Source of the DNA: a virus
Virus genome (UHGV): UHGV-0179428
Reading direction: 5' to 3' (one strand)
DNA: 64,000 nucleotides
Position numbers and translations under genes: made by a program. Under the pieces are notes generated by a model, which was not told the DNA's origin, ran no database searches, and saw nothing but the letters and a program-made list of their open reading frames with translations. This document shows, in pieces, positions 5,514 through 15,177 of the stretch (positions are counted from its first letter, which is position 1; each line of letters opens with the position of its first letter).

Positions 5514-5575
5514 AAAAAGAAAAAAATAAGAAAGTTAACCTACCTCCGAAAGGAGGTAGGTACTTTTATTTATTT
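5514..5575. terminator. Bidirectional Rho-independent terminator (CCTACCTCC / GGAGGTAGG stem)
   Basis: A-run, 9-bp stem with GAAA loop, then T-rich run; sits between convergent genes 4950..5513 (+) and 5570..6427 (-). Confidence 0.6.
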
Positions 5576-6427
5576 CGCCAGGTCTGCTTCTTTTACAAAG
5601 ATACCGTCGGCGTTCAGGTAACCTTTACGGTCTTTGATTTCGTGCCAGGCCAAAGAGAAACAATGACGAATGTCCAGTTTGTAATACAAGGCGATACGAG
5701 CAAGATGAGCTAAACCCAGGCTAACGAAATCGAAACCATGATCTTTGCCTTCCATAAAGGTTGTGGCAAAACTTTCAATAGCGTGAAGGTATTGTTGATG
5801 TGGGTATCCAGCGTTGTTTAAATTTTCTTCAACCTCAGCTACATCTTCCACGTTTAAGCGTAGACCAGACTCGATGCAGTCTTCTGCCACTGTAAGGTGA
5901 CCAGAATACGCATCCCCTAATTCGATTATGTTTACCAGAACCACCAACGCATCACCAATACCATCCATGATCAAATCAGGTTTGTTTTTACTGATACCCG
6001 CCGCAATTTCACCTAACTCTTCAAAGAACTTCGTGATTTGGGTTTCCAGTTTACCGTTATCGAGAATACCACGTTCTTTAGACCAACCTTTAACGAGTTT
6101 TACACATTTTGCGATCGTGCAAACTAGAACAGATTCTGTATGCATTACCGTGCCGTTGTAAACAGCATCGGTAAGCTTAATAGGCGCTACAATTGTTTCG
6201 ATGTCCAGTTCTTGATTACCGGTGTGGCGTTTACCTTCTACACGAATACGGTTGGTACCGGGGTTTACACCAATTGTGTAAATAGCATCGAACTGTACTG
6301 CATTCTCATTCAAAGCGCGCAGTTGTGCGTTAACTTCTTCCAGGTGCTGACCAGGATTAACTACGATGTTGTAAATAGTGTTGATGTCAAAACGTTCGCC
6401 CATTTTAAACTCCATTAGATTAAACAA
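5570..6427 (-). CDS. MazG-like nucleoside triphosphate pyrophosphohydrolase with N-terminal extension
   Basis: Motif FFEELGEIAAGI...DGIGDALVVLVNIIELGDA resembles the MazG/HisE EExxE...D metal-binding helix pair; second helical half near the C-terminus. Track start is TTG; an in-frame ATG with GGAG lies a few codons downstream. Confidence 0.5.
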   Translation of the reverse strand: MFNLMEFKMGERFDINTIYNIVVNPGQHLEEVNAQLRALNENAVQFDAIYTIGVNPGTNRIRVEGKRHTGNQELDIETIVAPIKLTDAVYNGTVMHTESVLVCTIAKCVKLVKGWSKERGILDNGKLETQITKFFEELGEIAAGISKNKPDLIMDGIGDALVVLVNIIELGDAYSGHLTVAEDCIESGLRLNVEDVAEVEENLNNAGYPHQQYLHAIESFATTFMEGKDHGFDFVSLGLAHLARIALYYKLDIRHCFSLAWHEIKDRKGYLNADGIFVKEADLAK

Positions 6428-7637: not shown

Positions 7638-8084
7638 TTAACCCATTAAATGTATTACAACGTCTTTAGTTACTGAGTTTGCTAGTAAGCGGAAAAACTT
7701 CATGTAACGGAAAATGCTAAAGAAAACCCCAGCGTTATCTACAATAACAAGACTGTATTTTTCTTTTTCTGTACCCATTTGGTAACCGATGATTTGGGTG
7801 ATATTCTCAGGTAAGTCTTCGAGACCCAAACGGAATATCACGTCGTCTTCTAAGAACCCTTTTGGGTTAACGAATAATACTTTCCCTTTATGGTTCTTAG
7901 CTAACTCGACACCGAAGTCTGTAAGTCCTGTCTGCCTGCCTGTACCGTAGCGGATAGTACGAAATTCAGATAAAGCTTTGGCTCCATAACGATCAGTAAA
8001 CGGATTATCTTTAGAATCCAGATCAGTTAAACCTTTTGATAATTCTTCTACTACGATGTTATAGTTAACATGAGTTTTAGACAT
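7638..8084 (-). CDS. Hypothetical protein (148 aa)
   Basis: ORF in the leftward operon. Confidence 0.5.
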   Translation of the reverse strand: MSKTHVNYNIVVEELSKGLTDLDSKDNPFTDRYGAKALSEFRTIRYGTGRQTGLTDFGVELAKNHKGKVLFVNPKGFLEDDVIFRLGLEDLPENITQIIGYQMGTEKEKYSLVIVDNAGVFFSIFRYMKFFRLLANSVTKDVVIHLMG

Positions 8085-8118
8085 TTCATTGTTCCTTTTA
8101 ATTACAAGCGAAATAACT

Positions 8119-8415
8119 TTATTGAAAATCTCGTTTGGCCTTGCTGATGATTTGAGATATTCGGCTTGGCGACACTCCGTGTATTTCGGCCAATTTCTTG
8201 TTACTTAGGCCACCCAATTTACCAACAAGAATATTCAATACACGTAAGTCTTTTAACGTTGCCGAAATCTTTTCTAAGATTTCGATATCACCTTGATCAA
8301 ACTTACCTTTGGTCTGCAATGCTATCCCAGCACGCTCGGTAATAGTTTTTAGCTCAGCTAATCGACTAATGCCGAAAGAAGTTAACTCCGCGTACGATTT
8401 CTCATTAATCATCAT
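8119..8415 (-). CDS. Small HTH protein resembling sigma-70 region 4 (possible transcription regulator or sigma-like factor)
   Basis: C-terminal LSNKKLAEIHGVSPSRISQIISKAKRDF resembles the region 4.2 helix-turn-helix of sigma-70 family proteins (pattern G-V-S-x-x-R-I-S-Q-I-x-x-K-A). Confidence 0.4.
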   Translation of the reverse strand: MMINEKSYAELTSFGISRLAELKTITERAGIALQTKGKFDQGDIEILEKISATLKDLRVLNILVGKLGGLSNKKLAEIHGVSPSRISQIISKAKRDFQ

Positions 8416-8422
8416 GTACCCC

Positions 8423-9457
8423 TTAGACAGCTATGGGAGCTTTAATTGTGTCGTGCGATTGATATCCAACCAATTCGAAGTCTTCGTATTTGTAATCGAA
8501 GATAGAATCAGGTTTACGTTTGATAACCAGCTTAGGTAGCGGGTAAGGTTCGCGTGTAAGTTGAAGTTTTGCCTGCTCCAGATGGTTAGAGTAAAGATGA
8601 ACATCTACGCCACTATAAACCAACTCGTCTGGAACCATATTGAGTTGTTGAGCAATCATGTGAGTTAACAACGCGTAAGAAGCGACGTTAAACGGTGCGC
8701 CAAGTAGGTAATCGTTGCTCCGCATCATGTAAAAACATGAAAGCTTACGGCGTGGAATGCCCTCACGATCTAAAGTTTCATGAAGTCGTTCTTCATCATC
8801 AATATCTTCGTGATTAATAAGTGGTGCGTTCGCAAATTTTTCCGGTTCGTTTACTTCGTACCAATCCAGTCGCTCAAGCAGTGACATTTCCGTTGTGTAG
8901 AATTGGAAATAGTTGTGGCATGGGTTAAGTGCCATATCGTCTAGGTCTGCTACATTCCAGGCACTAACGATAATACGGCGGGAGTCAGGGTCTTCACGAA
9001 GTTGCTGGATAACTTTACTGATCTGGTCATGTGCTTTTTCATAAACCAAATACGTCGTACCATCTTCCTTCATATTCCCAATATACTTGTAACCCCGCTG
9101 CATTAGTTGTTGTGTACGTCTTACGTCATGACACTCCACAACTTTACAGTCGCGCCATTCACGCCACTGGTGCCCGTAAACCGGACCTAAATCCCCTTCG
9201 TTGTTTGCCCATTCGTTCCAAATTTTTACCCCATTCTCTTGCAGGTACTTCACGTTAGTGTCACCGTTTAAGAACCACAGCAGTTCATGAATGATACTTT
9301 TCAGGTGAACCTTTTTCGTAGTAACTAATGGGAAACCTTCTTTCAGATCAAAACGTAGTTGACGGCCAAATACAGAAAGTGTCCCTACGCCTGTACGGTC
9401 TTTCTTGACAACACCGTTATCCAGAATGTCTTGCATTAACGCTAAATACTGTTTCAT
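8423..9457 (-). CDS. thyA: Thymidylate synthase (ThyA family) with two in-frame insertions
   Basis: N-terminus [15 protein letters not shown]...[12 protein letters not shown], catalytic-Cys motif [24 protein letters not shown] and C-terminus IKAPIAV are near-colinear with enterobacterial ThyA as I recall it. 344 aa versus ~264 aa because of two ~40-aa insertions (after WREW and after FQFYTTE). Confidence 0.85.
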
Positions 9458-9774
9458 TTGTTATTATTCCCCATTCGTTTCGTTAAAATATCTAAATTGC
9501 GCTGCGCTTGTTCAGGACTAAAAATAATGTTTTCCTGGCTATACGTTACATGAAAATGTTTTTTGTTAACAATGTCAACCTTAAGGCCACGAACTTCGAA
9601 TTGCCGTTTAGCCTCTTCAACCTTTTTTGGTGAGATTCTAAGAAGACCTGGAAATAGTTCGTCTGCGGGAACGTAGTATTTGATTTCCTTAGTCTCGGGA
9701 ATTAACTCGATTCTATCTAAACTGACGCTTATAATCTCGTCAATCTTTTTCTTGATATTGTCGTTCGCAACCAT
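9454..9774 (-). CDS. Hypothetical protein (106 aa)
   Basis: ORF with 4-nt overlap to thyA. Confidence 0.5.
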
Positions 9775-10082
9775 CAGATTTTGTCCCTTTCGAGTTCAGT
9801 TAAAATTTCAAACAGGTCTGCGTTGGATTGGAGTACGACTTCACTGCCTTCTGCTACAACGGTAATTGTTGGTTTCTTACCACGTAGCAAGAACTCCCAA
9901 CGCATGGTTCTTACGTGGCTGTCGAGTAACTGCTTTAATTTGTGGTTAACTTCGACTTCCAATTTGCCCAGTAACTGTGGTGTAATAGCTTCGCCTGAGT
10001 TTTTGTTATAAAGTGTACGCACTAAAGAACGTAAAGAATAACCAATGCACTGCGAAATTGCCCAACCCGAATAGTTTTCCAT
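9774..10082 (-). CDS. Hypothetical protein (102 aa)
   Basis: ORF, translationally coupled to neighbours. Confidence 0.5.
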   Translation of the reverse strand: MENYSGWAISQCIGYSLRSLVRTLYNKNSGEAITPQLLGKLEVEVNHKLKQLLDSHVRTMRWEFLLRGKKPTITVVAEGSEVVLQSNADLFEILTELERDKI

Positions 10083-10083
10083 G

Positions 10084-10629
10084 TTAATCCTTCAAAATGT
10101 CTTTAAGCTTTAGTTTTGTATAGAACGGAGAACTACTTAGTTCTTCTGTCCAACTTATACGTCCGTTCTGTAGAACCCGGTCGAAGATTAGGCCGTTCAT
10201 CTTTACAATTCTAGCCAACTGATAAAAGAGCGTCGTGAGGTGTAGTCGGCGTTCCATTTGTGCGCGTGCGGTACAACTGCGTACCGCTTTGATAGCAAGT
10301 ACCGCTTCTGGCATCAACGTCACCGCGATTGTCTCAGGATGTTCGTTTTTCCATTTCTTAATGGCTAGTAGTCTGTGTAACGATTTTTCAAGGGGACGTA
10401 AATCCCCGTTATTCATCACGTAAACCAAAGCAGCAATATCCCACAAGGCAATACCTACTGCTTTAGCAACAAACAACCCGTCGTGTGCTGTCGTGGATTC
10501 ACAGACTTTGCCAATACTTCCATAAACACGTGCGGTCCATACGTCTGTCTGTTCGCCGGGTTTTATACCCGCGTTATCCAGAAAGTGTTTAAACGTATTA
10601 ACGTGATCAGTTAACTGTATTTGTTTCAT
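10084..10629 (-). CDS. Hypothetical protein (181 aa)
   Basis: ORF. Confidence 0.5.
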   Translation of the reverse strand: MKQIQLTDHVNTFKHFLDNAGIKPGEQTDVWTARVYGSIGKVCESTTAHDGLFVAKAVGIALWDIAALVYVMNNGDLRPLEKSLHRLLAIKKWKNEHPETIAVTLMPEAVLAIKAVRSCTARAQMERRLHLTTLFYQLARIVKMNGLIFDRVLQNGRISWTEELSSSPFYTKLKLKDILKD

Positions 10630-10643
10630 TTCCGATACCCGAT

Positions 10644-11108
10644 TTAGTCACGAGACTTTATTTTAAGGTACGCAACCGCAGCTCCCACGATTGCAATCCC
10701 GGCACCCCAACCTATCTTTTCTATTACACCCATATCGTCCCATCTTTTCTCTTCGTTACGTCGTTTGGCCTCTTCTGCCCGTTCTCTCCACATCGCTTCG
10801 CGTTCCAGACAGCTGGGATTTATTTCCTCTTCACAACGTCGTTTCCGTTCTTCTTCCCCAATCAGTTCTTCTAAATAGAGCCTCGTTTCTTCCACAGCTT
10901 GTTCATAGACGTCTATGCGATCGGGAAGAACTCTCCTGTGAGCGGCTTTGTTGCGAACGGAAGCAATCATGTGGAGTTTCCGTTCGTATTTTGGTTCGAG
11001 AAGATGAGCTATGCTTTTGGTCTTCCCATGAAGCCCATGACCGGTACCGCCGAGTTTTTCCACAAGTTCTTCTACAGAAATTGCAAGATCGAGAATATAT
11101 CCACGCAT
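10644..11108 (-). CDS. HEPN-like (R-x4-H motif) protein with charged coiled region and C-terminal transmembrane anchor
   Basis: Start moved to the ATG at 11108 (GGAG 8 nt upstream). Motif ASVRNKAAHRR fits the HEPN R-x(4-6)-H signature; Glu/Arg-rich helix; C-terminal hydrophobic GWGAGIAIVGAAVAYL. Confidence 0.4.
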   Translation of the reverse strand: MRGYILDLAISVEELVEKLGGTGHGLHGKTKSIAHLLEPKYERKLHMIASVRNKAAHRRVLPDRIDVYEQAVEETRLYLEELIGEEERKRRCEEEINPSCLEREAMWRERAEEAKRRNEEKRWDDMGVIEKIGWGAGIAIVGAAVAYLKIKSRD

Positions 11109-11168
11109 AATTGTTTCTCCGCTTAAACGCAGTCTTGGGAGACATAAGTCTGTTCCCAACTGTAAAAA

Positions 11169-11537
11169 TCATTTCAACAAAACAAGATGAATTTGGTATT
11201 CGTCATCCGCAGGAGAAGAATAATCGCCAGTTACAGGTAACGTTATATCTCCCAGTATAGCGTGGAAGGGTAATCCACGAGCAGCCTCAACTGTTCGTAC
11301 AAGCGGAAAACCTGTTCTTTTAATCCAATTGTAATCAACAAACATAACGCCGCCAGGACTTCCCGAACCTTCCCACACACGAATTTCCACAGTCTTTCCC
11401 GAAAAGTTGGCAAGTACAGTGCGCAGCCCTAATTGCACATAACGGGGGAAGGGTACTTCAATAACTTGTTTTGGTAAAACAAATTCAGGGAATTTAAAAC
11501 CGAAACCTTTGGGTGTACTAAAAAACTGAGCTTGCAT
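11169..11537 (-). CDS. Hypothetical protein (122 aa)
   Basis: ORF with AGGAG RBS. Confidence 0.5.
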   Translation of the reverse strand: MQAQFFSTPKGFGFKFPEFVLPKQVIEVPFPRYVQLGLRTVLANFSGKTVEIRVWEGSGSPGGVMFVDYNWIKRTGFPLVRTVEAARGLPFHAILGDITLPVTGDYSSPADDEYQIHLVLLK

Positions 11538-11555
11538 GGTAATTCTCCTTTAGGG

Positions 11556-11594
11556 TAAAAAATGAAAATACCCTACTCCTAGTCAGGAGTAGGG
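11556..11594 (-). terminator. Rho-independent terminator (CCCTACTCCT / AGGAGTAGGG stem)
   Basis: 10-bp stem, AGTC loop, T-run on the minus strand; lies just after the stop of 11601..12260. Confidence 0.6.
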
Positions 11595-11600
11595 TAGGTG

Positions 11601-12260
11601 TTACATACGAGTAACTGAATCCCAGTAATCACGAAGATATTCTTGGTCTTCAGGATCTTTCGGTGTAGCCGGAATGTGGCCGTCAAACTCAAACGGAATT
11701 ACAGACAGAACATCCGCAATCTCGTAACGCTCGACTTCCAGTTCAACTTTCACCCAGTCACCGACGCTGGTACTACTACGCATCTCGGTGAGGAGATCGT
11801 TAAAGTCAGCCGAAACTTCAATTGCAGGGTGTCCGGTGGTGATAGTGAAAATATCAATATCCCAATGCTTAGCGCCTTCATCGGCTAATTCACCCGGTTC
11901 TAAGTGGATACGTTTCACCAGGTGAGCCAAATAACCGTCCTTGTAAAAAGAGAGTGCAGAACTAATACCGATATCCGAATTCTCTTCAACCTTTCCGTCC
12001 AGGAATTTACGCTTAAGCGTTAGCTGTGCTGTACCGTCTTCTTTAATACGGATACGACGACGCCCACCTTCTATCGGCATGAGAATGTCCATGAACATCT
12101 TAGCGGACTGTGCGTGTAACCAATCCCATCCCGCTTGCGTAGGTTTTACCCAAACACAATATTCCTTTTCCACTTCATGTTTAATGGATTCGCCTGCAAC
12201 GCGAATAACCTCTTCTTCCTGCGCTTTTTCCAATTGCGCAAGGGTATCGAATAATCCCAT
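11601..12260 (-). CDS. Hypothetical protein (219 aa); weak CYTH/triphosphate-tunnel-like residue pattern
   Basis: ORF. E-x-E-K near the N-terminus, RRRIRIK...LTLKRK, and ELEVE near the C-terminus loosely resemble CYTH/TTM signature strands; inference only. Confidence 0.5.
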   Translation of the reverse strand: MGLFDTLAQLEKAQEEEVIRVAGESIKHEVEKEYCVWVKPTQAGWDWLHAQSAKMFMDILMPIEGGRRRIRIKEDGTAQLTLKRKFLDGKVEENSDIGISSALSFYKDGYLAHLVKRIHLEPGELADEGAKHWDIDIFTITTGHPAIEVSADFNDLLTEMRSSTSVGDWVKVELEVERYEIADVLSVIPFEFDGHIPATPKDPEDQEYLRDYWDSVTRM

Positions 12261-13102
12261 TAGATTAATCCCATACTTTCACTGACGCTCGTAATGTCGA
12301 ACGCTGTGTCGTTAAAGTCGATGTTTTCTACAATAGAAACCACCAGATTAGGAAGCCATTCCGAATGGGGTGGTGTAATAACCCGGCCGTTCATAACGTA
12401 GTAGTGCAAGAACGGTAATCCCATCGAATGGCAGTACGATAACACATTCCCTAAGCAGCTTCCGTCAAACTTCAAGAGTCGGAGCTTACGCAGTAATGCG
12501 TTTTGAAATGCACCGTTCGCGTAATCGCTAAACTCGCCAGGCCGATAATCCGTGCCCCCGTAAATACTCGCCTTTAATCGTCGACCGCGTTGTATACATT
12601 CAGCCCCAGTCAGGGTGCGTAATAAACGGATGTCAGGATATTCAGTTTCCAAACGACCCAAAGCGTTTATTCCGTAACCTTTGTAGAACAGATAGTCTAC
12701 GATCCTTAAATAATGATAGTAGCCTTCTAACGTTAAAAACTGACCGTGAATCGTGTCGAATTTCGCACCGTTAGGTTGCGCGTAGAAGTTACTGATCATT
12801 TTCCCTACGGTAGTACGACCGTTAGAGTAAAGGTTAAGATGGTTGATACCATCGGTAAAAGGGAGTTTTTCGGGTAACGCACAAACGTAGCCTAAACGAC
12901 GAAGGTATAGGACATAAACAAAGCGCTCATCAGGAGTAAGCACGATGTTTGACGCGTTAACGTATCCATTAGGATTATTTTGGCCAGGTTGATAACCCAG
13001 CGTTAATGCCAAAGCGTGATTGTCTTCGCCCTGACTTTTGATCTTCTTTAATACGGAACGCAGTAATTGTGGTTCGGACATAACCGGCCTCTTAAATTGC
13101 AA
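12260..13102 (-). CDS. Hypothetical protein (280 aa)
   Basis: ORF. Confidence 0.5.
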   Translation of the reverse strand: MQFKRPVMSEPQLLRSVLKKIKSQGEDNHALALTLGYQPGQNNPNGYVNASNIVLTPDERFVYVLYLRRLGYVCALPEKLPFTDGINHLNLYSNGRTTVGKMISNFYAQPNGAKFDTIHGQFLTLEGYYHYLRIVDYLFYKGYGINALGRLETEYPDIRLLRTLTGAECIQRGRRLKASIYGGTDYRPGEFSDYANGAFQNALLRKLRLLKFDGSCLGNVLSYCHSMGLPFLHYYVMNGRVITPPHSEWLPNLVVSIVENIDFNDTAFDITSVSESMGLI

Positions 13103-14393
13103 AATAGTCTTCCACGATTTTATCGGTAGACTGGTAACTTACACTGCCTGCAGCAATCACGTAATTACGTTTCTCGGTGGTCAGTAGCGCCTGAATCGCA
13201 TTTACGCCCGCATAGGTGTAAAGTTTAAGTTCAGTCATTTCTGGCGTGATGTTTTTCGCTTTGTCCCATTTTGCATCTAATCCTTTAAATAGCGTTAATA
13301 GACGAGTGCCATACGTTTTGAAACTGACACCGGGTTCAACCCGAAGGTTAGCCATAAGGTTCTGGATAACGGTGGTTGCGATCTGAGTCCCTTGCCCCGG
13401 TTGGAGTTTATCCAGATAGTATTCCGTTGAATCCAGATTACCTGTCGCTGCTGCCTGAATCATCAGCTCGCCGTACAGTACCTCTTTCGCTTGTGCATCA
13501 GTAATCGCTTGAAGCATCGGTTCGATTTTAGCCGGTAAACCATAACTGTTCAGTTTAGTAGACAGGCCATAAATCAGCGCTGAAGAGGTATTAATGTCTA
13601 ACGTGGAGAAACTGTTGCTGCCTTTAAAGCTGTTAATCAGGTTATCGATGGCTAGGAAGTCGTCTAAGTCTTTGTAGCTGTCGAAAGTATGCTGTACGTC
13701 ATCAACGATCGAGGTGATTTGATAACGCATACTGTTGACTTCAGACATAAACCCGTTGACTTCTTGACTAACTTCCGAGGGGAGTTTAGCCAGTTGCCCA
13801 GCAATGTTCATCGTTCCTTCGAGACGTTTTTTCACCGAGTTAAAGTCAGTACCGATACCTGATAAAACAGAGTCGGTTAAGCTGCCGATGCTGTCCCACC
13901 CTTTATTTAACAGTTTCCCCATCCCACCCGGACTTAGGTAGTCTAACGCCTTTAGACCATCTTCATCCTTTTTCTTAAAAGGTTCAGAAACGTCACGCTT
14001 TTGCGGATCGAGGACAGGAAGTGTTTCTTTGGTATTAGATGCAAAACCGGGAACCTTTTGTCCTGGAGATACACCGGAAGCCGAACTCCCCGCAGTCTTA
14101 CTTCCGCCAATACTGGCGGTATCGCTACCGCCAAAAAGGTTACCAATTTTGCTGGTCAGCTCGTTGCCGCCGCCAATCAGTTTGTTGAATGTTTCACCAG
14201 CACGTTCTGATAATCGGTTGACGCTATCGACCGTGCTTTTAATACCACGCTCCGCATTCTCCACCGTCGATTGTACGCGGTTTGCGGCGTTCTTTGCCGT
14301 ATTAACGGAATTATCGATTGCTGACTGACCTTTATTTATCTGACTGGTTATTTGGTCTATTTTCATTCTGGTCTCCAATTTGGTATTCGTCAA
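13092..14393 (-). CDS. Hypothetical protein (433 aa) with low-complexity Ser/Gly/Asn-rich N-terminal region
   Basis: ORF; N-terminal ~150 aa polar repeats, possibly coiled or disordered. Confidence 0.5.
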   Translation of the reverse strand: MTNTKLETRMKIDQITSQINKGQSAIDNSVNTAKNAANRVQSTVENAERGIKSTVDSVNRLSERAGETFNKLIGGGNELTSKIGNLFGGSDTASIGGSKTAGSSASGVSPGQKVPGFASNTKETLPVLDPQKRDVSEPFKKKDEDGLKALDYLSPGGMGKLLNKGWDSIGSLTDSVLSGIGTDFNSVKKRLEGTMNIAGQLAKLPSEVSQEVNGFMSEVNSMRYQITSIVDDVQHTFDSYKDLDDFLAIDNLINSFKGSNSFSTLDINTSSALIYGLSTKLNSYGLPAKIEPMLQAITDAQAKEVLYGELMIQAAATGNLDSTEYYLDKLQPGQGTQIATTVIQNLMANLRVEPGVSFKTYGTRLLTLFKGLDAKWDKAKNITPEMTELKLYTYAGVNAIQALLTTEKRNYVIAAGSVSYQSTDKIVEDYFAI

Positions 14394-15177
14394 GGTTTAC
14401 CGTGACCTGAACTTCGTAGATTTTATTGTCTTTCTGACGCCTTAAGGTCAGAAGGATTTCGAAACTACGAACATCAATTGCCTTGAGTACCCTCATAAAC
14501 CATTTCCAGGAAAACTTCTTTTTTAACCTTAGATTGTGCTGCATGTTGTGCCGCAAATCATTTCGTTTCGACGGCGTCTGTTCACAGTTAGCAGGATCGT
14601 TAACGAAGTTTGTGGAAAGACGATACCACCAGTCCGCATTCATTTTCATGTTTGCGAAGATAGTCCAAGTTAACCGAGATAACGGATGTACCATCATCTT
14701 TGCGGTCTCACCACAGTTCTGGAAATAACGGTTCAATTGCGCAGTTGCAGACTCTTTAGGTCGTTCGTCGTTATCTTCGAACAAATCCCGAGCGAGATCT
14801 TCACGCACGCGTGTGGTAATTTCAGATACGGTTTTTGTTTTGAAGTGTCCTCGGTAAGTGGTTACACAAATCCGCAGTGTCTCCACTCCGGTAATCACCA
14901 ACCCTTCTGTAAAACCTCGCCAGGTAAGATCGACAGGTAGTGCAGGGATGTTACCTGAACTCAGCTTCGTGGAGATACGTTGTATTCGATCGTCCATCGT
15001 TGCTTTTGAACGTGTTTTAAATTCTGGAGACAGAATATGTTTGGCGACGGCGAGTTTATAATCCGAAGGCTTCCATCCGATCAATTCTTTATAATTCCAA
15101 TATAGTGTTTGAAGTGGTCCGCCTGCACGTTCGTCTTCAGCGTCCACGACCACACTTACTTTTTTGCTATCCATCAC
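14332..15177 (-). CDS. Hypothetical protein (281 aa)
   Basis: ORF. Confidence 0.5.
   Translation of the reverse strand: MMDSKKVSVVVDAEDERAGGPLQTLYWNYKELIGWKPSDYKLAVAKHILSPEFKTRSKATMDDRIQRISTKLSSGNIPALPVDLTWRGFTEGLVITGVETLRICVTTYRGHFKTKTVSEITTRVREDLARDLFEDNDERPKESATAQLNRYFQNCGETAKMMVHPLSRLTWTIFANMKMNADWWYRLSTNFVNDPANCEQTPSKRNDLRHNMQHNLRLKKKFSWKWFMRVLKAIDVRSFEILLTLRRQKDNKIYEVQVTVNLDEYQIGDQNENRPNNQSDK

Follow-up and report, generated by a model that had tools for sequence, protein, structure and literature searches.

Toxin-antitoxin, CRISPR and abortive-infection systems rely centrally on HEPN ribonucleases (RNases) as effectors, and a membrane-tethered branch of HEPN proteins was flagged in 2013 by comparative genomics. 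In that computational work Anantharaman et al. described DUF4145 as fused to zinc ribbon, transmembrane (TM) and SH3 regions, as well as a group of proteins, found for example in Planctomyces, with an N-terminal HEPN domain, TM helices and a C-terminal zinc ribbon; membrane-associated HEPN proteins were predicted to process RNA at the inner membrane surface (PMC3710099). No experimental study of this TM-HEPN family was found in the searched literature. The stretch of DNA analyzed here, referred to as the window, consists of 64,000 nucleotides of the virus genome UHGV-0179428 and includes, on the minus strand, a gene (10644..11108) whose product is a minimal, tail-anchored, phage-borne member of this known, experimentally untouched family. 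As in the proteins described in 2013, an N-terminal HEPN domain, predicted to be cytoplasmic, is followed by a TM helix, and the relatives of the window protein reproduce several of the forms described then (HEPN-TM-SH3_3, HEPN-TM-Excalibur and HEPN-zinc ribbon-TM), many of them in Planctomycetota. Unlike those forms, the window protein has no zinc ribbon or SH3 module beyond the TM segment; it has a single tail anchor and is carried by a jumbo phage.

RAZR, the product of the PD-T7-4 system, is a DUF4145-type HEPN protein that cleaves single-stranded RNA and tRNA, with both the R and the H of its motif being required; it is soluble, has an N-terminal Cys4 zinc finger and becomes active when it assembles around phage ring proteins (PMC13017515). 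Its residues R146 and H154 are eight positions apart, whereas the window protein has the spacing R-x4-H, two Cys residues, no zinc-finger pattern and no match to PDLC04109 (PADLOC, E≤0.1). In the HepT-MntA systems (5yep, 6m6u, 7ae2) the toxin is encoded next to a nucleotidyltransferase antitoxin, a gene that is not found beside the window gene, and the HepT motif is Rx4HxY, while in the window protein H57 is followed by R58 and R59, with no tyrosine. The window protein differs also in being membrane anchored and in lacking similarity to HepT at the sequence level. Csx28, a type VI-B2 CRISPR accessory protein, has one TM helix and a cytoplasmic HEPN-like bundle at the inner membrane, as is predicted here; on the other hand, its TM helix comes first, its motif is divergent and non-catalytic, it forms a Cas13b-dependent octameric pore and it is encoded next to cas13b, whereas no CRISPR genes are found in the phage gene context. 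The KEN domains of Ire1 and RNase L are HEPN RNases in which the active site forms upon self-association, and Ire1 is a single-pass membrane protein. An analogy between Ire1 and the bacterial TM-HEPN proteins has been drawn before (PMC3710099), and for the window protein, which has no kinase domain, circular permutation or lumenal sensor, it is an analogy only. Tha and HepS are soluble, are activated by incoming tail proteins and are carried by temperate phages (PMC11087260; PDB 9oik); they have no sequence relation to the window protein.

The gene coincides exactly with the coordinates given in the initial annotation, which was made from the DNA sequence, and consists of 154 codons followed by a stop codon at 10644-10646. 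Its ATG start codon at 11108 lies 8 nt downstream of a Shine-Dalgarno sequence, GGAG (11117..11120, minus strand; upstream sequence ...GCGGAGAAACAATTATG). A longer version could start at a TTG at 11159, and the ATG is preferred because of the position of the GGAG and because an N-terminal MR is found in all orthologues. These were collected from 5.8 billion proteins and comprise 57 clusters (57/57 starting with MR), nearly all from 221-226 kb contigs or pieces of such contigs, labeled, where a source is given, as Salmonella, Shigella or E. coli. Among them hardly any variation is seen in the first 85 residues or in the C-terminal helix, and the ratio of nonsynonymous to synonymous substitution rates (dN/dS) for the N-terminal HEPN part is 0.27-0.33, indicative of purifying selection. 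The conservation and the low dN/dS therefore identify the open reading frame (ORF) as a real gene under selection. A 139-amino-acid (aa) ORF on the plus strand (10691-11110) was rejected as an antisense shadow of this Glu/Arg-rich gene.

The initial annotation had singled out SVRNKAAHRR, residues 50-59, as a match to the HEPN R-x(4-6)-H signature. Such a pattern alone carries no weight, since it is present in 82% of shuffles of the 154-aa protein; it is found also in 52 of the 106 long stop-free stretches of the window. The stricter form R[NDH]x3H occurs in 4.6% of the shuffles. What takes the motif R52-N53-K54-A55-A56-H57 (10938..10955, minus strand), the predicted catalytic Rx4H, beyond chance is its conservation across the family together with its location at the structural position that defines HEPN domains. 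R52, N53 and H57 are invariant among the orthologues, and in an alignment of 209 domains from 198 distant proteins (window numbering) each is conserved at 98%, so that the motif proposed from the DNA proves to be a canonical R-N-x3-H. Other positions at which the window protein agrees with the distant domains are E13 (99%), G25 (97%), H27 (88%), K29 (88%) and A49 (93%). The family is characterized by two motifs, R-N-K-x-x-H-E and G-[AG]-x-G-[RK]-G-L-H-E-K. The latter spans the loop between helices 1 and 2 and the start of helix 2, and in the window protein corresponds to residues 20-28, G-G-T-G-H-G-L-H-G, with K29 next (11025..11051, minus strand).

Two AlphaFold2 runs, one using an alignment of 21 orthologues and the other an alignment of 14 diverse relatives, produced models with the same helices at residues 2-18, 25-32, 39-57, 65-94, 98-125 and 128-153. 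The first four, H1 to H4, make up a minimal HEPN four-helix domain (residues 1-95; 10824..11108, minus strand), for which pLDDT was about 90 in the former run and 95-98 in the latter. The HEPN fold has been defined as an up-and-down bundle of four helices forming two alpha-hairpins, with helices 2 and 3 often separated by an insert. The Rx4-6H motif closes helix 3 or opens the loop that connects it to helix 4, the residue following the R is usually polar (N, D or H), and a conserved acidic residue precedes the motif, typically in helix 2 as part of Ex3[KR] (PMC3710099). The models of the window protein have the four-helix bundle, and in both of them RNKAAH terminates helix 3, just ahead of the loop that precedes helix 4, with R52 followed by the polar N53. 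As for the acidic residues preceding the motif, E13 is present in helix 1 and position 28, in helix 2, is occupied by Gly.

HEPN proteins predominated in both fold searches. In one of them the matches included HepT and other HEPN toxins, the sacsin HEPN domain, Roquin, DrrA, HepS, MtlR and Csm6, and 11 of the 15 top matches are members of the superfamily as listed in PMC3710099. In the other, HepT toxins held the top rank in Foldseek with a probability of 0.97 and an E value of 0.15, which is not significant, and the Foldseek comparison with viral structures (BFVD) yielded no significant match. Two matches to sequences in the PDB were rejected, one to Cas13b (E 0.29) because the aligned part was the charged linker and not the motif, and one to TAF3 because of low complexity. 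The collections PHROGs, PADLOC (E≤0.1) and NCBIfam have no model that recognizes the window protein. The initial annotation had named a missing HEPN fold, or a motif lying outside a four-helix bundle, as grounds for abandoning its proposal, and neither was seen in the models and fold searches, which support the identity of the window protein as HEPN at the level of the superfamily.

The domain is followed by a Glu/Arg-rich spacer of variable length (residues 96-127; 10728..10823, minus strand) with a predicted helix at residues 98-125. Between residues 86 and 128 there are 12 K or R and 14 D or E, i.e., 26 charged residues in 43. In-frame insertions and deletions change the length of this segment, which is absent in the 136-aa orthologues, extended in the forms of 175-191 aa, and about 37 residues longer in those of 191 aa. 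The charged helix noticed in the initial annotation is thus present and predicted to be helical but, because it varies in length or is missing among orthologues, must be considered a spacer rather than a conserved functional element. The remaining residues (128-154; 10647..10727, minus strand) comprise a juxtamembrane motif, W-D-D-x4-E-K, a TM helix and a short tail. The hydrophobic segment IGWGAGIAIVGAAVAYL, residues 132-148, is rich in Gly and Ala and is followed by KIKSRD, so that the protein ends six residues past the TM helix. It holds four small-xxx-small motifs, of a type typical of helix-helix packing. The juxtamembrane motif, in the general form W-[SD]-[DE]-x4-E-[KR], and the TM helix are common to the phage protein and short tail-anchored distant relatives, and one or more TM helices follow the HEPN domain in 151 of the 198 distant relatives (~76-78%). 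Hydropathy, the helix in both models and the occurrence of TM helices across the family all bear out the C-terminal anchor suggested by the first inspection of the sequence. Taken by itself, the assignment of a HEPN fold with a membrane anchor is very likely to be correct.

A search of 1.84 billion representative proteins with a profile of the orthologues revealed 281 relatives at E≤1e-3. Among the 198 distant proteins, 49 share the architecture of the window protein, with one HEPN domain, one TM helix and a short tail. In 64 others the single TM helix precedes an additional C-terminal region, 32 carry at least two TM helices, 11 are chains with tandem HEPN domains, in two the TM helix is N-terminal to the HEPN domain, and 40 lack a TM helix at the threshold used. 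The domains located beyond the TM helix include Excalibur in Acinetobacter and SH3_3 in Pyrinomonadaceae (P0241), and since these are usually extracytoplasmic the HEPN domain of the family is expected to be cytoplasmic. In the relative P0078 a double zinc ribbon (DZR) separates the HEPN domain from a C-terminal TM helix. The curated families touched by relatives are HEPN families only, among them the Pfam families HEPN_RiboL-PSP and HEPN_Apea, and where relatives match PADLOC and NCBIfam models below threshold, the aligned parts are the HEPN motifs of Csm6, Cas13b/d and CARF-HEPN proteins. A scan of one genome per species with the 14-sequence alignment placed the family mostly in Planctomycetota, with further members in Pseudomonas, Moraxellaceae, Campylobacterota, Lentisphaerota, Cloacimonadales and others. 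In the tandem proteins P0096 and P0205 the R-N-x3-H motif is present in the first copy only, the second having R-S-x-A-A-N with loss of the N and H, and judging from these residues the pair resembles a pseudo-dimer with unequal halves. Of the full-length bacterial relatives the closest, in Pseudomonas danubii (NZ_CP116502.1; locus L075, 4920-5413), is divided by a frameshift into ORFs of 101 and 97 aa, which could reflect either a pseudogene or a sequencing error.

We propose that the N-terminal ~95 residues would form a cytoplasmic minimal DUF4145-like HEPN domain with an intact R52-N53-x3-H57 site, which the variable charged spacer would join to the Gly/Ala-rich C-terminal TM helix acting as a tail anchor in the inner membrane. 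In the published model of HEPN catalysis the active site is made up of the R and H residues of two apposed subunits (PMC3710099), and from this model and the activity of RAZR we infer that the window protein may be a metal-independent endoribonuclease with its site at a dimer interface. By analogy with characterized HEPN enzymes a single subunit would be inactive. Two subunits would meet in the plane of the membrane, an encounter favored by the juxtamembrane motif and by the TM helix with its small-xxx-small pattern, and the apposed subunits would form a composite site cutting RNA near the membrane, with the flexible spacer acting as a tether that confines the enzyme to the inner membrane face. 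If association occurs laterally through the TM helix, activity would therefore depend on it. The tandem HEPN relatives (11 of the 198) fit the idea of a dimer site. On these analogies, that the protein is a membrane-tethered HEPN RNase is the probable reading, and one in which we have less confidence than in the fold and anchor on which it builds.

Several results weigh against this reading. The TM segment is marginally hydrophobic when considered alone, with a Kyte-Doolittle value of 1.82 over 17 residues. Searches of PDB sequences with the protein (phmmer) and with the family profile (hmmsearch) gave no sequence-level match to solved HEPN structures. The comparison with Pfam DUF4145 (PF13643), which aligned residues 11-59 with positions 21-72 of the profile, scored 13.2 bits (E 0.096), below the gathering threshold of 23.1 bits, and for this reason the protein can be called DUF4145-like at the superfamily level and is not called a member. 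DUF4145 is the only Pfam family to which the window protein has any match. The link to it anticipated in the initial annotation is real but weak; of 61 relatives, six match at E≤1e-3 (best E 5.5e-07; P0059, at 23.1 bits, is exactly at the threshold). In addition, four positions conserved in the family are occupied by other residues in the window protein: it has H24 where 87% of the distant domains have R or K, G28 where 79% have E, H46 where 84% have R and R58 where 75% have E. This allele is common to the window protein and cluster P0001; most other orthologues in the phage clade keep R24 and E28, and those of 136 aa have Ser at position 28. As a consequence of the four substitutions activity could be weakened or altered and, as far as can be read from the residues, the window allele may be an attenuated or retuned variant. 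The ordinary neighborhoods of the bacterial relatives, with no partner gene, provide no functional lead. Finally, an untethered, constitutively active RNase would also cut the phage's own cytoplasmic mRNAs.

The most interesting alternative is a membrane-permeabilizing effector similar to Csx28, in which the HEPN bundles would oligomerize face to back into a ring and the TM helices would form a depolarizing pore, RNA cleavage not being the output. An octameric pore is indeed formed by Csx28, which has a single TM helix and, in the cytoplasm, a HEPN-like bundle of four helices; the window TM helix has the four small-xxx-small motifs, and the usual E28, R/K24 and R46 have been lost from the window protein, all of which would agree with such a function. 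Nevertheless, the motif of Csx28 is degenerate, the order of its domains is the opposite, and it was absent from both fold searches; we consider a pore unlikely. At the other extreme, the R-x4-H could be an accident, the protein being some small helical membrane protein unrelated to HEPN, such as a lysis protein of the holin or antiholin type. The abundance of the loose pattern in shuffled sequences, the small size of the protein, its one TM helix and the lack of a curated model that recognizes it are what could be expected in that case. Invariance of the motif over hundreds of distant homologues, at the HEPN-defining position, the lead of HEPN proteins in both fold searches and the lack of recognizable lysis genes beside the HEPN gene argue so strongly to the contrary that this reading is, in effect, ruled out.

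A non-catalytic protein must be considered as well. It could tether RNA or ribosomes to the membrane, and C-tail-anchored ribosome-binding proteins, ElaB and YqjD, are found in E. coli; or it could, as the initial annotation had suggested among its options, serve as a decoy or antitoxin that forms dead heterodimers with host HEPN defense proteins. The acidic residue E28 is missing in the window variant, HEPN domains dimerize, and some members of the superfamily are non-catalytic binders (PMC3710099). Against these points, R, N and H are 98% conserved across members from phages and bacteria alike, which is the signature of an active HEPN RNase. The decoy version encounters further objections: most relatives are on bacterial chromosomes without phage or defense context, a distribution that argues against anti-defense as the ancestral role, and in the comparisons with PADLOC and NCBIfam the protein did not resemble a particular HEPN system of the host. 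With the triad strictly kept and no cognate partner found, the decoy or antitoxin proposal has no support, and a non-catalytic role of either kind is unlikely.

The window belongs to a clade of jumbo phages of ~221-226 kb related to Seoulvirus. Its ThyA is 64% identical to those of SPN3US-like phages, and its PHROG matches include a tail fiber, virion proteins, a UvsX-like recombinase, an SbcC-like protein and MazG. Matches were found to circular "plasmids" from E. coli 98232 (NZ_CP173450.1, 221,873 bp, 87.5%) and Enterobacter ludwigii (NZ_CP134650.1, 222,441 bp, 85%), in which the PGAP annotation of the HEPN orthologue is "hypothetical protein", and the clade is present in Salmonella and Shigella assemblies too. 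Persistent Seoul-like, chimallin-encoding jumbo phages have been reported inside bacterial assemblies (bioRxiv 10.1101/2024.12.31.630880), and the clade of the window fits these persistent virulent phages. In a collection of 50,697 phage genomes, which includes plaque-isolated relatives of Seoulvirus, no match was found for the HEPN locus by megablast (window positions 8000-14500), for the HEPN protein by tblastn, or for two distant members of the family.

The gene order around the HEPN gene is fixed in the clade: genes for proteins of 219 and 117-122 aa, the HEPN-TM gene, genes for proteins of 181 and 102 aa, and thyA. The HEPN gene has the same orientation as thyA and mazG and lies between virion-protein genes; the "early block" of the initial annotation is a supposition about its timing. 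Its neighbors in the window include no nucleotidyltransferase and no significant Pfam family, and no conserved partner or antitoxin was identified, the phage neighbors being ORFans or genes conserved also in those Seoulvirus phages from which the HEPN gene is absent. Upstream is an ORFan of 122 aa (11169..11537, minus strand), always adjacent in the clade, without Pfam or PHROG matches or similarity to the gene at that position in Seoulvirus JN03, with no match in the 50,697 phage genomes and with homologues only in the 221-226 kb clade; by its adjacency it is a possible partner or regulator of the HEPN gene. Just upstream of this ORFan a pattern scan located, by match to the consensus, a terminator-like hairpin with a 12-bp stem followed by TTTTCATTTT (11569..11596, minus strand), which from its sequence may mark a boundary of the transcription unit. 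The sigma-70 promoter scan found fewer sites than in shuffled sequences and was uninformative for this type of phage.

In JN03 the same slot includes two small genes unrelated to the pair formed by the ORFan and the HEPN gene, and the candidacy of one of them as a diverged HEPN homologue was rejected (E 0.64). Therefore the HEPN gene and the 122-aa ORFan constitute a clade-specific islet of ~1 kb. On one side of it, the 219-aa gene matches phrog_7768 in the window, and JN03 has a gene of equal length at the same position, the likeness being one of length and position only. On the other side are the 181-aa and 102-aa ORFs (10084-10629 and 9774-10082, minus strand), 1 nt apart, which match the N- and C-terminal parts of phrog_10269 (299 positions), a homologue of which is conserved in JN03 (E 3e-06). 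Since the two ORFs correspond there to a single protein of 286 aa, this gene is split in the clade; the split is present also in loci L002 and L005. The same PHROG matches a part of the MazG protein encoded at 5570-6427. Between the split gene and thyA is a small presence/absence difference, an ORF of 106 aa in the window (9454-9774, minus strand), which as a 105/106-aa ORF is found also in L005-L007, with the 154-aa variant of the HEPN protein, and is absent from L002, L099 and L100, with the 136-aa variant.

The bacterial copies of the gene are solitary and located in ordinary chromosomal neighborhoods, with a cold-shock protein gene and a LysR regulator nearby in Acinetobacter, sugar-metabolism genes, or FabF and HxlR in Pseudomonas; no nucleotidyltransferase, defense gene, antitoxin or other recurrent partner was found beside them. 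In Acinetobacter sp. LF10 (L013, 5518-6708) the HEPN-TM-Excalibur gene is directly 3' of a cold-shock-domain (CSD) gene in two independent assemblies, and this adjacency is a possible RNA-related link. The family is rare elsewhere in viral data. A siphovirus-like prophage (L011, 424-837 and 905-1315) has a 137-aa HEPN-TM gene beside a small lipoprotein-like gene (phrog_914), the pair being inserted between the genes for a minor tail protein and a tail assembly protein, a classic moron position, and in another prophage (L012) a copy without TM helix is located between a hol-like gene and an integrase.

The gene would have been captured from the widespread bacterial family of membrane-associated HEPN proteins by Seoul-like, nucleus-forming jumbo phages, in which it is a solo accessory gene. 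Most plausibly it would serve to attack RNA at the membrane, either that of the host or that of rival phages that superinfect the cell, the resident phage being spared. Because it is an accessory gene of this clade, set against its plaque-isolated relatives, it is a candidate for a function in competition between phages or in the persistent lifestyle. Carriage by persistent phages, the tblastn result with the phage collection and the moron positions of relatives in prophages point to competition, a role that we suggest tentatively, the chances being against it. A function in host RNA turnover is an equally mechanical possibility, and a host-shutoff toxin, mentioned in the initial annotation, is possible as one of several candidate roles. 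A bolder version, to which we assign a low probability, is a self-contained Ire1-like membrane sensor-RNase serving as a device for superinfection exclusion or persistence. The HEPN subunits would be monomeric and silent while tethered apart, and a disturbance of the envelope, such as injection of DNA by a rival or depolarization, would cause clustering through the Gly/Ala-rich TM helix and cleavage of RNA at the membrane. It could operate as a single gene or as a two-gene device with the adjacent 122-aa ORFan.

Being small, solo and endowed with clear catalytic candidates, the phage copy is a convenient entry point to the question of whether an RNase can be gated by clustering in the membrane. 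As one of the few clade-specific accessory genes, it is also a marker of the persistent Seoul-like jumbo phages. If the protein is just another HEPN toxin, the gain would be a better annotation for several hundred "hypothetical proteins"; if the sensor-RNase reading is true, the bacterial TM-HEPN family as a whole would for the first time become accessible to functional study.

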